Below are positions 3,250 through 52,740 of a DNA stretch of 64,000 nt, in pieces. Both the position numbers and the translations under genes were made by a program. Below the pieces are notes generated by a model that saw only the letters and a list, made by a program, of their open reading frames with translations, was not told the origin of the DNA and made no database searches. How positions within the stretch are numbered: the stretch's first letter is position 1; every line of letters starts with the position of its first letter. The stretch is from Clostridia bacterium (GTDB lineage: Bacteria; Bacillota; Clostridia; Oscillospirales; CAG-272), in contig JAGATD010000049.1 in NCBI GenBank assembly GCA_017621415.1, forward strand, positions 1,127 to 65,126, read 5' to 3'.

Positions 3250-3253
3250 TTTT

Positions 3254-3281
3254 AATTTCGAATTTCAAATTTTGAATTTTG
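3254..3281. repeat. Heptamer tandem repeat AATT(T)(C/T)(G/A) x4
   Basis: aatttcg aatttca aattttg aattttg. Confidence 0.6.
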
Positions 3282-48500: not shown

Positions 48501-49235
48501 ATACGCCTTCTCAAGCACCTCATCCTCAAACTTAACCGCATCAACGGTTGTAAGGAATGTGGTGTGACGGCAGTGGTCGGACCAGTATGTATCTATCATC
48601 TTGATTTCGGTGATAGTGGGACATCTGCCCTCTTTCTTAAAATACTGCTGACAGAACTTAATATCGTCAAGGTCCATAGCAAGGCCCTTTTCTGCAATGA
48701 AAGCAGCAAGTCCGTCAGAATCAAGGTCAAGGAAGCCGTCAAGTGTTGCAACAGTCGTGGGAACCGCATACTCGGTAGCAAGAGTTTCACGGGTTGCAAG
48801 AGATGCTTCTCTTGCTTCAACGGGATTGATAACGTGCTTTTTAATTCTCGAAACATCATCCTTTGTAAGTCTGCCGTAAAGCATATATACCTTTGCGGAT
48901 GCGACAGTAGGCTTGTCACCCTGAGAAATAAGCTGAATACACTGAGCTGCAGAGTCTGCTCTCTGGTCAAACTGACCGGGCAGGAATTCTGTTGCAAAAA
49001 CTACCGCGCCGTCATTCTCAACATTCTTATAAACGTCATCAAGCTGAGGCTCGGAGAATACTGTGCCAACCGCGTAGTTAAACAACTCCTCTGTAATATT
49101 TTCAGCATCGTATCTGTTAATAATTCTCACACGCTCAACAGACTCAATACCGAGGAAGGTTTTTATTTCAGAAAGAAGAGCTCTTGCCTCATTGTCGAGG
49201 CCTGCCTTTTTCTCAACATAAATACGATATACCAT
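45543..49235 (-). CDS. purL: Phosphoribosylformylglycinamidine synthase (fused, large type)
   Basis: YWSDHCRH, KNETHNHPTE, DFGAGG, SESQERM, GGKDSMS, GICNGFQ, MGHSER. Confidence 0.97.
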   Translation of the reverse strand: MVYRIYVEKKAGLDNEARALLSEIKTFLGIESVERVRIINRYDAENITEELFNYAVGTVFSEPQLDDVYKNVENDGAVVFATEFLPGQFDQRADSAAQCIQLISQGDKPTVASAKVYMLYGRLTKDDVSRIKKHVINPVEAREASLATRETLATEYAVPTTVATLDGFLDLDSDGLAAFIAEKGLAMDLDDIKFCQQYFKKEGRCPTITEIKMIDTYWSDHCRHTTFLTTVDAVKFEDEVLEKAYNDYISSREYLNRTKPINLMDIGTIAAKCLKKAGKLEGLDESEEINACTVKITVDVDGKKEPWLLLFKNETHNHPTEIEPFGGAATCIGGAIRDPLSGRSYVYGAMRLTGAADPTKPLSETLAGKLPQRKIVTTAAAGYSSYGNQIGLATGIVDEIYHDGYAAKHMEVGAVIAAAPAKNVRREVPAPGDIIILLGGRTGRDGCGGATGSSKSHNLKSLENCGAEVQKGNAPEERKIQRLFRNAEVSAMIKRCNDFGAGGVSVAIGELADGLDIDLNAVPKKYEGLDGTELAISESQERMAVVIEAENKDRFLSLADSENLEATVVATVKADPRLTMTWNGKTIVDISRDFLNSNGAEKHITIETPKIVDYKKNAPASFSDGMKAVASDLNICSKRGLSERFDSTIGAGTVLMPFGGKYQRTPIQAMVQKISVEKAHTDLASFMSWGYNPDISSASPYHGAYLAVVESASKLVATGAEYKDVYLTFQEYFEKPGKDPKRWGKPLLALLGAYKAQMELGIAAIGGKDSMSGSFEKLDVPPTLISFAVTTDKAANAISPEFKAAGHKLVILKPDYDENGLPKADSLLSLYKKVNELMRAGKVYAAYTPTFGGVAEAVLKMCLGNKLGFTFDSTVSSDDIFGYNYGAFLLEVAENERAGDIVGMITEDYSLNYKDEKIDLNTLENIYEEKLEGIYSCNIAFKEEKPETVSYNAKKVAAPLVKCAKPHVLIPVFPGTNCEYDSAKAVRDAGADPEIFVINNLTADGVKRSAETFAKKIAESQAIFVPGGFSGGDEPDGSGKFITAFFRGAAVKAAVTDLLDSRDGLMCGICNGFQALVKLGLVPFGKIMDTDESCPTLTFNNIARHQSKIVRTRIASNKSPWLSLCNVGDIVNVPISHGEGKFLADEKTLERLKKNGQIATQYVDENGDATYDIQYNPNGSSWAIEGITSPDGRVFGKMGHSERIGKDLYRNVYGEYDIKMFANMVKYFKG

Positions 49236-49237
49236 TT

Positions 49238-50509
49238 TTAGTTTTCCTCCAATGCCTTCATAGCTTTAGCTCCGATGTCAGAGCGATAATATGCGTTTTC
49301 AAACTTTACCTTTTCGCATTTTTTATAAGCCGCCTTGATTGCAGAACCTAAGTCAGACGCAACAGCGGTAACTCCAAGTACACGTCCGCCTGCGTTAACA
49401 AGCTTTCCGTCAGAGAGCTTCGCACCGGCAACATACACAGAGTCAAACACCTCATCATCAATGGTGATTTCGTATCCGCTCTCATACTTTTCGGGATAGC
49501 CGCGAGAAGCCATTACAACGCAGCAGGCAGCACCGTTTGCAAACCTTACTTCACATTTATCAAGAGTTTCGTTGGTTGTTGCCATCATTACATCAAGCAG
49601 GTCTGACTCAAGAAGAGGAAGAACAACCTGTGTCTCGGGGTCGCCGAAGCGGCAGTTATATTCAATAACCTTAGGTCCGTCGGGGGTAAGCATAAGTCCG
49701 AAGTAAAGGCATCCCTTAAAGGTTCTGCCCTCCTTGTTCATAGCCTCTATTGTGGGGAGGAATATTTTTTCCATACACTCTTTGGCTACAGCCTCGGTGT
49801 AATAGGGGTTGGGAGCTATTGTACCCATACCGCCTGTGTTAAGTCCCTCATCTCCGTCAAGAGCACGCTTATGGTCCATTGATGAAACCATAGGAATAAC
49901 AACCTTTCCGTCAGTAAAGGAAAGCACCGAAACCTCGGGTCCTGTAAGGAACTCCTCGACAACAATGCGAGAGCCGCTTTCACCGAATTTTTTGTCCTCC
50001 ATTATGGACTTAACGGCATCAACAGCCATTTCCCTCTCTGTTGCTATAATAACACCCTTACCGAGCGCCAAGCCGTCTGCCTTAACTACCGTGGGGATAG
50101 GACAGGTCTTAACATACTCAAGAGCCGCCTCGGCATTATCAAAAACCTCGTATCCCGCAGTGGGAATACCGTACTTTTTCATCAGGTTCTTTGAAAACAC
50201 CTTACTGCCCTCTATTATTGCCGCGTTTGCTCTTGGTCCAAAGCAAGGAACACCGATTGCCTCAAGGGCATCAACACAACCAAGAACAAGAGGGTCATCG
50301 GGAGCAACGACCGCATAATCTATTTTCTCGTTTTTAGCAAACTCTACAATTGCGGGAATATCCTTAGCTCCGATGGGCACAAGCGTTGCGTCTTTTGCCA
50401 TACCGCCGTTACCGGGAACCGCAAAAATCTCGGTTACATTTTTATTTTCTTTTATTTTCTTGATGATGGCATGCTCTCTGCCGCCACCGCCTACTACCAT
50501 TATTTTCAT
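49238..50509 (-). CDS. purD: Phosphoribosylamine--glycine ligase
   Basis: GGGGREHA, KADGLALGKGV, NTGGMG, EYNCRFGDPETQ. Confidence 0.97.
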   Translation of the reverse strand: MKIMVVGGGGREHAIIKKIKENKNVTEIFAVPGNGGMAKDATLVPIGAKDIPAIVEFAKNEKIDYAVVAPDDPLVLGCVDALEAIGVPCFGPRANAAIIEGSKVFSKNLMKKYGIPTAGYEVFDNAEAALEYVKTCPIPTVVKADGLALGKGVIIATEREMAVDAVKSIMEDKKFGESGSRIVVEEFLTGPEVSVLSFTDGKVVIPMVSSMDHKRALDGDEGLNTGGMGTIAPNPYYTEAVAKECMEKIFLPTIEAMNKEGRTFKGCLYFGLMLTPDGPKVIEYNCRFGDPETQVVLPLLESDLLDVMMATTNETLDKCEVRFANGAACCVVMASRGYPEKYESGYEITIDDEVFDSVYVAGAKLSDGKLVNAGGRVLGVTAVASDLGSAIKAAYKKCEKVKFENAYYRSDIGAKAMKALEEN

Positions 50510-50534
50510 TCAGTTATACCTCATAAAATAATCT

Positions 50535-50763
50535 TGTCGCAAAGCGACATATCGAATCCGCATTACTAATGCGGATATATCGAAATTACTAAAAGTAATT
50601 ATATCGAGTGCCTCAAGGCACATATCGACAAAAAACGAACATCAATCACGAACAAAGCCTCGTCGATATACTCGGATTTGCCTCGTTAGATATGCCTCGC
50701 AAAGCTCGGCTCGATATATTCGCTCCCGCGAATTCGATATGTTTTCCGAGCCTCTCGGAAAAC
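50535..50763. repeat. Inverted double array of ATATCGA heptamers with palindromic spacers
   Basis: ATATCGA at 50549, 50577, 50601, 50622; TCGATAT at 50663, 50711, 50734 and TAGATAT at 50687. Confidence 0.85.
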
Positions 50764-50786
50764 GTTCATTGATTGCCTGTCGGCAA

Positions 50787-51971
50787 TTAATGGTGGAACA
50801 GGCGCATGCCCGTAAATGCCATAACCATGCCGTACTTATCGCAGCACTCAATAACCGCATCGTCACGGATAGAGCCGCCGGGCTCTGCTATATACTTAAC
50901 GCCCGATTTCTTTGCTCTCTCGATATTATCAGAGAATGGGAAGAATGCATCCGATCCCAGGGCTACGCCGTCAATTGTATCAAGGTATGCTCTCTGCTCT
51001 TCCTTAGTGAAGGGGGCGGGCTGCTCGGTGAAGTACTTCTGCCAATTACCGTCTGCGCAAACATCCTCTTCGTTCTGGTTTATGTAACCGTCTATAACAT
51101 TGTCTCTGTCAGGGCGCTTGATATCCGCCTTGAAGGGAAGAGAGAGCACCTTGTCGGACTGACGGAGGAACCAGGTATCAGCCTTACCGCCTGCGAGTCT
51201 TGTACAGTGAACTCTCGACTGCTGACCTGCTCCAACACCTATAGCCTGTCCGTCTATTGCGAAGCAAACAGAGTTGGACTGTGTATACTTAAGAGTAATA
51301 AGAGCTACCACAAGATCGCGAACCGCACTCTCGGGCATATCCTTATTCTCTGTAACAATCTCCTTAAGAAGAGCGGGATTTATTTCAAAATTATTTCTTC
51401 CCTGCTCAAATGTAATACCGTACACCTGCTTTCTTTCAACCTCAGCGGGAACAAAGTCAGGATCTATCTTTACGATATTGTAGCCGCCCTTTCTCTTTCC
51501 CTTAAGGATTTCAAGAGCCTCAGGCTCGTATCCGGGAGCTATGATTCCGTCAGAGACCTCTCTTGCTATCATCTTTGCGGTAGTAACGTCACAAACGTCG
51601 CTGAGCGCTACCCAGTCACCAAAGGAGCACATTCTGTCTGTACCTCTCGCTCTTGCATAAGCGCAAGCAAGAAGAGAGCCATCAAGTCCCTCTATATCAT
51701 CAACAAAGCAAGCCTTCTTTAACTTGTCGGAGAGAGGAATACCAACTGCAGCGGATGTGGGAGACACGTGCTTAAAGGAGGTAACCGCAGGAAGTCCGAG
51801 AGCCGCTTTAAGCTCCTTTACAAGCTGCCAGGAATTGAATGCGTCAAGGAAGTTAATGTAGCCGGGTCTGCCGTTAAGAATCTCAATAGGAAGCTCTGAG
51901 CCGTCGTGCATAAAGATTTTAGCAGGCTTTTGGTTAGGGTTACAGCCGTATTTAAGTTCAAATTCTTTCAT
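50787..51971 (-). CDS. purH: AICAR formyltransferase (PurH transformylase domain only)
   Basis: LKYGCNPNQ at the N-terminus (no IMPCH domain), SFKHVSP, KYTQSNSV, GAGQQSR, SDAFFPF, EPGGS, RLFHH. Confidence 0.9.
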   Translation of the reverse strand: MKEFELKYGCNPNQKPAKIFMHDGSELPIEILNGRPGYINFLDAFNSWQLVKELKAALGLPAVTSFKHVSPTSAAVGIPLSDKLKKACFVDDIEGLDGSLLACAYARARGTDRMCSFGDWVALSDVCDVTTAKMIAREVSDGIIAPGYEPEALEILKGKRKGGYNIVKIDPDFVPAEVERKQVYGITFEQGRNNFEINPALLKEIVTENKDMPESAVRDLVVALITLKYTQSNSVCFAIDGQAIGVGAGQQSRVHCTRLAGGKADTWFLRQSDKVLSLPFKADIKRPDRDNVIDGYINQNEEDVCADGNWQKYFTEQPAPFTKEEQRAYLDTIDGVALGSDAFFPFSDNIERAKKSGVKYIAEPGGSIRDDAVIECCDKYGMVMAFTGMRLFHH

Positions 51972-51996
51972 TTTAATCTCCTTATGTTTATACTCA

Positions 51997-52021
51997 CGGC
52001 GGGAGCAAGCCCCCGCACTAC
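51997..52021 (-). repeat. GTAG-type REP element
   Basis: GTAG-TGCGGGGGCTTGCTCCCGCCG on the minus strand. Confidence 0.6.
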
Positions 52022-52023
52022 GA

Positions 52024-52740
52024 TTATACGTTTTTGTTTACTACTCTTGTATCGGTCTCGCCTGATGCGATGTTGATATATCTTACAAAGAGAGAGACCT
52101 TGTTGTCCTCGTTAAGATTTGTCCAGATAAGGTCTGTAAGAGTATCAATATCCACATCCGGAAGAATAAGAGTTTTAGGCTCGCCTTCGAATGAAGGAAG
52201 GGGATTTCCGTCACCGTTATATGTGTGGATAAACTTAGCAACACCTGCTTTGGGGTTAGAGTATGCGTATGTAAATCTCTCACAGGAGGAATCGTCACCC
52301 TCAGCGCTCTTCAAAATAGACATAGCAAAGTTCATATCGCAGCACTCACGGCGGATAATACCCGAAATTCTGGGGGTAAAGTTAGGCTTATCGTCCTCAA
52401 ACTCACGTGTTCTGAGAGCCTGCTCAAAGGTCATCTGCTTGTCCATAAGCTCATAAATCGTATCGGTCTGGTCGCCGTTTGTAACAATTGTTTTGTTGCC
52501 GAGAACTCTTACGGGATAGTAGATGATAAGGTGCGGGTCAACCATTTTTGACTCATCAAACGCCTTGGTACGCATAGCATCACCCTCAAGAACAAAAACA
52601 CGGTTACGGCTGTTCTCGCTTCTGCCCATAATAAAGTAAGCGGTAACTGCCTTTTTCCCGTCGGCAGACTTGCCTATTATAATTCCTCTGCCGTGGTAGG
52701 CAAGAGAGTTAAGCTCTTCCTTAATTGTGGATATTTTCAT
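52024..52740 (-). CDS. IMP cyclohydrolase (PurO-like)
   Basis: YHGRGIIIG, AYFIMGRSENSRNR, IIYYPV, VTNGDQTD, FTPRISG. Confidence 0.85.
   Translation of the reverse strand: MKISTIKEELNSLAYHGRGIIIGKSADGKKAVTAYFIMGRSENSRNRVFVLEGDAMRTKAFDESKMVDPHLIIYYPVRVLGNKTIVTNGDQTDTIYELMDKQMTFEQALRTREFEDDKPNFTPRISGIIRRECCDMNFAMSILKSAEGDDSSCERFTYAYSNPKAGVAKFIHTYNGDGNPLPSFEGEPKTLILPDVDIDTLTDLIWTNLNEDNKVSLFVRYINIASGETDTRVVNKNV

Follow-up and report, generated by a model that had tools for sequence, protein, structure and literature searches.

The spacer between purH and purD in a Clostridia bacterium genome (Oscillospirales, CAG-272) holds a mirrored array of hairpins alternating with a constant 7-nt word. Is it a regulator of the purine operon in which it lies, a landing platform for a protein, or a passenger that arrived from elsewhere? 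The original prediction, made from the letters of the sequence, had proposed a structured repeat, either a non-autonomous mobile element or a scaffold for RNA processing or protein binding. In what follows, the window is the whole 64,000-nucleotide stretch of DNA that was analysed, coordinates without a locus name are positions in it, and G000 is the genome from which it comes.

Architecture of the array

The array extends from 50536 to 50763 and comprises two arms of four units each around a 34-nt centre, a unit being a variable hairpin plus the constant word TCGATAT, or ATATCGA on the other strand. Every element listed in the original prediction was recovered at its place. On the + strand, the left-arm hairpins lie at 50536-50548, 50556-50576, 50584-50600 and 50608-50621, each followed by ATATCGA (at 50549, 50577, 50601 and 50622). 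In the right arm, TCGATAT is found at 50663, 50711 and 50734 and the variant TAGATAT at 50687, with a hairpin after each (50670-50686, 50694-50710, 50718-50733 and 50741-50763, in + strand coordinates). The 64-kb window contains 16 exact heptamers, both strands included, and 7 of them fall inside a 192-nt stretch of the array, where 0.03 are expected from the genome-wide frequency of 333 matches in 1.97 Mb (Poisson P about 7e-15).

The placement of the array inside the pur operon was confirmed, both flanking genes being supported by Pfam. The features are, in the direction of transcription:

50790..51971, − strand: purH (AICAR transformylase/IMP cyclohydrolase), the upstream gene, from the open reading frame list (Pfam PF01808, AICARFT_IMPCHas, E 5.8e-54)
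50787-50789, − strand: purH stop codon
50773..50786, − strand: short hairpin directly 3′ of the purH stop, outside the arrays, paired in both minimum-energy folds
50663..50763, − strand: B-type arm, four times (hairpin + AUAUCGA) on the transcribed strand
50629..50662, − strand: 34-nt centre separating the arms, with ATATCGAC and GTCGATAT at its borders
50536..50628, − strand: A-type arm, four times (UCGAUAU + perfect hairpin), with a G before the first heptamer
50510..50535, − strand: purine-rich tail (AAGA...) leading into the purD ribosome-binding site
49241..50509, − strand: purD (phosphoribosylglycinamide synthetase), the downstream gene (Pfam GARS_N/A/C)

On the transcribed strand, the third heptamer of the B-type arm reads AUAUCUA in this genome, and the stems of the two units closest to the centre contain tandem G.A mismatches. 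A RAGA tail followed by a ribosome-binding site is also found after A-type arms elsewhere. The centre contains two direct copies of ACGAACA, seven bases apart.

Contigs from 4 gut metagenome runs of 4 studies cover the whole element, nearly unchanged, so that it is not an assembly artefact. Position 50688 is A in this genome and in run X3, and C in runs X4, X7 and X8; as C restores TCGATAT, the TAGATAT word is a private point change. Run X7 alone also differs at 50750 and 50771. Some contig joints skip 276-285 nt. They were examined as possible excision events and rejected as such, 16-34 other letters lying between the two sides; we read them as short spacers of related species present in the same samples, not as excision here.

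The element is an insertion at the pur site

The purD gene was located in 25 other genomes of the genus, and the purH-purD spacer, 277 nt long in this genome, could be measured in 23 of them. It is 10-116 nt long in these congeners, 10-27 nt in most, and usually consists of just the ribosome-binding site. None of the 23 spacers contains the array, including those of four congeners that have TCGATAT arrays elsewhere. From these empty sites we conclude that the element is an insertion of about 250 nt, private to the species at this site. It is co-oriented with the pur operon, the purD ribosome-binding site is preserved, and no target-site duplication could be recognised at the insertion.

This comparison of spacers among relatives had been suggested by the original prediction, and its outcome supports the non-autonomous mobile element proposed there. 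So does genome G026, where five near-identical copies with unrelated flanks were found, sharing a sharp left boundary between G and TCGATAT and accompanied by internal-deletion derivatives. This is the signature of recent spread within that genome.

A family of TCGATAT arms

Seven TCGATAT arms are present in this genome. Six of them have four heptamers and the remaining one has three. Contigs C27 and C36 contain two arms each, the pair on C36 being the array studied here, and C25, C33 and C56 contain one each. The hairpins of the seven are unrelated, in line with the earlier remark that the spacers are alike in structure and not in sequence. Beyond this genome, a three-heptamer pattern was matched in 6 of 41 relatives. 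Among 401 genomes of the order, 39 contain it (in 24 of 177 genera), as do 32 of the 301 sampled from the class, against 3/401 and 6/301 for the reversed control pattern; some of the positives are chance matches or other repeats (e. g. G164, G659). The structured repeat is thus conserved elsewhere, as had been anticipated, and the element is ordinary for its bacterial class. One genome of the class sample, G705, gave 133 matches, far above any other genome.

Heptamers were counted in 68 arms, taken from 30 fetched loci and five contigs of this genome: 56 arms have four, 6 have three and 6 have five, and a G precedes the first heptamer in 47. A CRISPR array, with repeats of ~23-50 nt and non-palindromic spacers, was considered and discarded, the repeat being here 7 nt long, the spacers palindromic, and the units four in 56/68 arms. 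A Pfam search of 69 ORFs flanking arrays returned diverse genes with no common function, and no transposase or recombinase among them.

The two arms are combined in several ways. The order A-B-gene (the gene is described in the next section) was found at L119, G000:C27, L031 and L032, B-gene-A at L125, and A-B without a gene at many loci. Further layouts are A-B-gene-A with two identical A arms (L032), B-A, and a solo A arm (G000:C25). At L017 the arms are directly adjacent, without a centre. At L032 (G286:C85, 517-1150), an A arm, a B arm, the gene and the second, identical A arm are followed by a release-factor gene, and the second A arm copy includes the upstream hairpin. This layout looks like that of a circle integrated at a pre-existing A arm.

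In A-B composites (e. g. L020 3177-3359, L023 3052-3225), the arms are separated by a segment complementary to the final five bases of the first heptamer together with the 5′ half of hairpin 1. Segment and hairpin 1 vary in concert across loci, four versions being seen, and the two are predicted to form another, long-range helix that closes the A arm. The copy in the window is devoid of this closing helix.

Mirrored arrays with other linkers are also present in this genome. Four copies have a GTGAAGT linker (G000:C11:3587, C27:9177, C31:12293 and C33:10891) and a centre that is conserved and complements the far end; at G000 C18:132891 and C52:52871 the linkers are ATGATAT and ATGAAAT. Altogether, hairpin/heptamer arrays cover under 1% of the genome. 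It also contains 31 plain period-7 arrays. One of these lies in the window at 3250-3281 (G000:C36:4376-4407; units AATTTCG / TTTTGAA, found with TRF); its unit occurs in about a dozen arrays of the genome, at none of the four PF05635 genes.

Arrays are associated with PF05635 genes

The original prediction had recommended searching for a gene enclosed by the two arms elsewhere, and such a gene was found. At L125 (G119), four hairpin + ATATCGA units, a ribosome-binding site, a 116-aa ORF matching PF05635 (1477-1827) and four TCGATAT + hairpin units follow one another. The position of the 34-nt centre is therefore occupied by this ORF in L125, and by zero bases in L017. In its order of parts, L125 has the layout of the array at 50536-50763 with a gene in place of the centre; the ends of the L125 gene were compared by eye with the 34-nt centre, and no similarity was seen. 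About 50 nt beyond the A arm of L125, a lysine riboswitch was detected (1978-2150, 81.8 bits), which places the G119 cassette just upstream of a riboswitch-controlled gene.

PF05635, the '23S rRNA intervening-sequence protein', is an Avd-like four-helix bundle, and it recurs directly downstream of double arrays. In this genome a 116-aa PF05635 protein (E 1e-22) is encoded after the double array of G000:C27; the closest solved structure to it is PDB 2rld (E 3e-24), which has 5 chains. The enclosed gene had been expected to be a candidate cognate enzyme. This was not borne out, the product being a small ring-forming protein without a catalytic domain.

The association is general in the order. 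Among the best 30 PF05635 matches, 30 have 7-nt repeats or heptamer-hairpin arrays just upstream, as scored by eye, in the form of plain tandem heptamers or of hairpin arrays with linkers GCTAAAT, GTGATAT, GTTATGA and others, and many PF05635 genes have in addition a reverse-complement array downstream. An automated classifier of upstream repeats gave 44/56, missing clear hairpin arrays, and 23/144 for a control contaminated by downstream arms of the same cassettes; it was not used as a test. All four PF05635 genes of this genome have arrays. At the genome level, PF05635 is present in 36/39 array-positive versus 155/362 array-negative genomes of the order, counts in which kin are not independent.

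In a quick maximum-likelihood tree of 56 PF05635 proteins, those linked to TCGATAT form one clade (5 rows, SH-aLRT 100), 23 of 23 hairpin-type cassettes fall inside one clade of 26 rows, and identical linkers group together. Simple linkage alone can explain this grouping. No gene with a TCGATAT leader was found among the PF05635 matches of the array-rich genomes G333, G393 and G017, which indicates that solo arms need no matching resident gene. Reverse transcriptase (PF00078) had no match in this genome, which is 97% complete, so that its PF05635 genes do not accompany a diversity-generating retroelement as accessory genes.

Cassettes recur at the same sites

The pur site is not used by the window element only. 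The order purH, PF05635 cassette, purD was found at L081, L095 and L099, in three families and with three different heptamers, the cassette in each case immediately following the purH stop and preceding purD. Cassettes also recur at the rlmD 3′ end (six genomes, including this one) and at the terminators or flanks of tRNA genes. Two ATGAATT-type cassettes located after rlmD, L106 (G017:C38, family f1) and L117 (G333:C1, family f8), are near-identical, and the likeness covers both the protein and the arrays. Their presence at a shared site points to horizontal transfer with site preference. At another locus, L118, a terminator and the array start are repeated on both sides of the cassette.

The architecture is that of Gut-1 with another linker

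The Rfam family Gut-1 (RF01706) is likewise made of short variable hairpins on a constant 7-nt linker, in gut bacteria. Its Rfam consensus is GUGAAAU + hairpin three times, then a final GUGAAAU. Gut-1 calls for at least three variable hairpins on a constant 7-nt linker, and four hairpins and four heptamers were counted in each arm here; the linkers differ, being GUGAAAU in Gut-1 and UCGAUAU in the window element. No Rfam match was obtained in window 49000-52500 at E up to 10, the curated cut-off of Gut-1 being 50 bits.

Gut-1 was matched elsewhere, with 66.4, 58.8 and 56.9 bits, at L110, L114 and L090, which have GTGAAAT or GTGATAT linkers. Each of these matches is the A arm of an A-B composite directly upstream of a PF05635 gene. 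The GTGAAGT arrays of this genome scored 37.8 bits, below the cut-off. At L119 (143-362), three tandem sub-threshold Gut-1-like matches (26.6-35.5 bits, GCGAAAT/GCTAAAT linkers) were seen about 1.2 kb from the TCGATAT cassette of G140.

The element is therefore a linker variant of the Gut-1 architecture, invisible to the current Rfam model. The original prediction called the repeat undescribed and took an Rfam match as the sign to the contrary. The result is divided: the same architecture with a GUGAAAU linker is a known family, yet the window copy itself has no match at E ≤10. In the accessible part of its original account (Weinberg et al. 2010, PMC2864571), Gut-1 is a free-standing single-arm non-coding RNA from human gut sequences only, and that part has no mirrored second arm, PF05635 gene, other linkers or insertion. 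No link of hairpin-heptamer arrays or Gut-1 to PF05635 was found in the literature searched, and among the papers listed for TCGATAT + hairpin none was relevant.

Folding and strand

The element folds better than 200 of 200 shuffles on either strand (z −4.8 for the sense strand, −6.3 for the other). On the sense strand, the minimum free energy is −87.7 kcal/mol, a forced four-helix ladder reaches −82.9, and the fold in which heptamers are forbidden to pair −65.4. The ladder is thus 4.8 kcal/mol above the minimum and 17.5 below the fold without heptamer pairing. The arms are reverse-complementary at the heptamers alone. The branched fold through complementary heptamers, put forward in the original prediction, is energetically plausible, but no compensatory change was found between partner heptamers: the variants of L021 and L022 are unmatched in the partner arm, and in G026 one whole arm is ATATCGC with the other arm still TCGATAT. 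The uniformity of heptamers within an arm looks like the product of homogenisation or protein recognition, not of pairing.

The two right-arm hairpins first described as imperfect do contain mismatches, but these are not sloppy: on the minus strand they are tandem G.A/A.G pairs inside a Watson-Crick stem, a feature that recurs in B-type arms elsewhere. A survey of 96 hairpins of 20 composite elements, these two counted, gave the following stem mismatches on the gene-sense strand: A.G/G.A 44, C.T/T.C 5, G.T 4 and A.C 0. The excess of purine-purine mismatches favours the gene-sense strand as the folded one; the G.T versus A.C strand test (4 versus 0) has counts too low to decide. The orientation of the elements also favours folding of the gene-sense strand, 17 of 20 lying co-oriented between co-directional genes according to our own reading of rough greedy ORF maps. 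The loops carry a further polarity. T-rich loops (TTC, TTGC, TTAC, TGAC) are found in each arm's own TCGATAT orientation, so that on one RNA strand UUCG-like loops would be present in the A arm only. Such a pattern is equally compatible with RNA and with arms that are read on opposite strands of DNA.

Discussion

Several known elements resemble the array in part. As described in the available portion of PMC4990558, the Coxiella burnetii intervening sequence (IVS) of 23S rRNA is a selfish element that carries an S23p ORF, has tandem heptamers ahead of the start codon and a terminal stem, and is excised by RNase III, and S23p relatives form pentameric rings, a Xanthomonas homopentamer being cited; intervening sequences of Leptospira and others are cited there too. 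As far as this portion goes, the likenesses with our element and its relatives are a selfish insert in a host transcript, presumably also in our case, inverted ends that may likewise form a stem here, a PF05635 cargo after heptamers, and a sporadic distribution suggesting horizontal transfer. The differences are the following. The S23p IVS resides in 23S rRNA (helix 25 or 45), whereas the window element is in an mRNA operon, between purH and purD. The IVS carries a PF05635 ORF, whereas the window copy has its 34-nt centre only, the ORF being present in the sibling L125. The IVS heptamers are in tandem, according to the same portion, and ours are separated by hairpins. RNase III cleavage is there reported as shown for the Coxiella IVS; for the window element we only infer it.

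The TAACTGA arrays of Beggiatoaceae, cyanobacteria and Bacteroidetes, in the text of PMC4679880 at our disposal, are also a dispersed intergenic 7-nt word, often placed before start codons, with a patchy phylogeny and insertions relative to close relatives; unlike the present arrays, they repeat in plain tandem, with no hairpins as spacers. That text does not contain the words 23S, S23, 'four helix' or 'intervening'. REP/BIME sequences and MITEs are, like our element, small gene-less structured inserts found in multiple intergenic copies within operons, with empty sites in relatives. The present family is MITE-like in that it is multicopy, that relatives have empty sites and that a full-length form with a gene exists, but it shows no conserved palindrome, no terminal inverted repeat beyond the heptamers, and no transposase or RAYT.

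We consider it probable that the element at 50536-50763 is a gene-less derivative of an IVS-like cassette, tolerated in the pur transcript because it is folded. The full cassette consists of a B-type arm, a ribosome-binding site, a PF05635 gene of about 116 aa (S23p/IVP, Avd-like) and an A-type arm. In the window copy, the gene would have been replaced by 34 nt; the element was inserted into the short purH-purD spacer. Its position inside the operon suggests that it is transcribed within the pur mRNA. There, looping out of the hairpins would bring the heptamers together, in the way that sister cassettes have them in plain tandem, and the arms could then pair heptamer to heptamer into a compact ladder. 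By analogy with the S23p-bearing 23S IVS, the folded form may keep the insert harmless to the host transcript; it may also be processed by RNase III, the stable hairpins then capping the flanking RNAs. On this reading, the element is a selfish passenger that does not regulate purine synthesis.

That the arms serve in recombination at the DNA level is a serious alternative, compatible with this explanation, although we hold it to be rather unlikely that they act mainly in this way. They would be folded or duplex DNA, serving as recombination or attachment sites in the manner of transposon ends or integron attC; a recombinase or the PF05635 protein would read them, the hairpins would extrude on single-stranded DNA, and the window copy would be a leftover site. 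The permuted and duplicated layouts do look like recombination products, and the identical loop polarity of each arm in its own orientation, the homogenised heptamers, the near-identical cassettes at the rlmD site of two families and the repeated flanks of L118 all go in the same direction. Against this, the 69 flanking ORFs searched with Pfam provided no recombinase gene that accompanies the cassettes, the purine-purine mismatches dominate on the gene-sense strand (44 versus 5), and the elements are mostly co-oriented with flanking genes. The passenger explanation and this one are not exclusive, because a mobile element needs a DNA step too.

More speculative, and in our opinion improbable, is the proposal that the arms are the address for a PF05635 ring, arms and protein together forming a self-contained mobile cassette that moves as a circle. 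It is just as doubtful that the A-B junction would be the joint of this circle and that solo A arms (before purD, or at G000:C25) would be its landing sites. If this were true, Gut-1, dispersed heptamer repeats and the S23p/Avd-like family would share one function.

Somewhat less credible still is the idea that the ring-forming PF05635 protein docks on the arrays, each subunit on one heptamer while the hairpins loop out. Solo arms such as the one before purD would then put their neighbours under PF05635 control, as a regulon or a sponge. Relatives of the protein do form five-subunit rings (PDB 2rld, 5 chains; the Xanthomonas homopentamer in the portion of PMC4990558 mentioned above), but 56 of 68 arms have four heptamers, not five. 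Protein clades go with heptamer sequence, a co-variation equally explained by simple linkage. Arms are placed directly before ribosome-binding sites, yet the flanking genes have no common function. Finally, array-positive genomes nearly always carry PF05635, but G333, G393 and G017 have many TCGATAT arms and no PF05635 gene with such a leader among their matches.

It is very unlikely that the element is of the REP/BIME type, or an IS200/IS605-derived miniature moved by a Y1 (HUH) transposase. What could suggest it is the short constant single-stranded word with hairpins beside it, the clustering of inverted units and the presence of one Y1_Tnp gene in the genome. However, the hairpins are unrelated within and between arms, unlike those of REPs, and what the arms enclose is a PF05635 gene and no transposase. 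The Y1 transposase was in any case rejected as the mover: the sole Y1 gene, located at the end of a contig, is of the ordinary IS200 type and has no arrays around it. The least tenable reading, a pur-specific cis-regulator of purD (riboswitch, attenuator or PurR operator), takes its appeal from the location inside the pur operon, directly before purD, and from the two ACGAACA copies of the centre, which resemble the CGAAC core of the Bacillus/Lactococcus PurBox, possibly by chance or as a remnant; it is contradicted by the absence of the array from the same spacer in 23 of 23 congeners, by the same arms beside unrelated genes and by the lack of an Rfam match.

To our knowledge, Gut-1 has been an orphan motif since 2010, and we know of no function assigned to S23p/PF05635 since it was found inside 23S rRNA intervening sequences. 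The locus studied here and its relatives show that the Gut-1 architecture and PF05635 belong to one insertable unit, many linker variants of which are missed by the current Rfam model. To this picture the window contributes another copy, a new linker class and the recurrence at the purH site. For genome annotation, it follows that such arrays are not to be read as gene-specific regulators. Ordinary operons are colonised by the unit, and certain positions are used repeatedly: the 3′ ends of purH and of rlmD, and tRNA gene flanks. It also offers a tractable case of a mobile element, being a small cassette whose full-length, permuted and gene-less forms are clear, with evidence of recent horizontal transfer.
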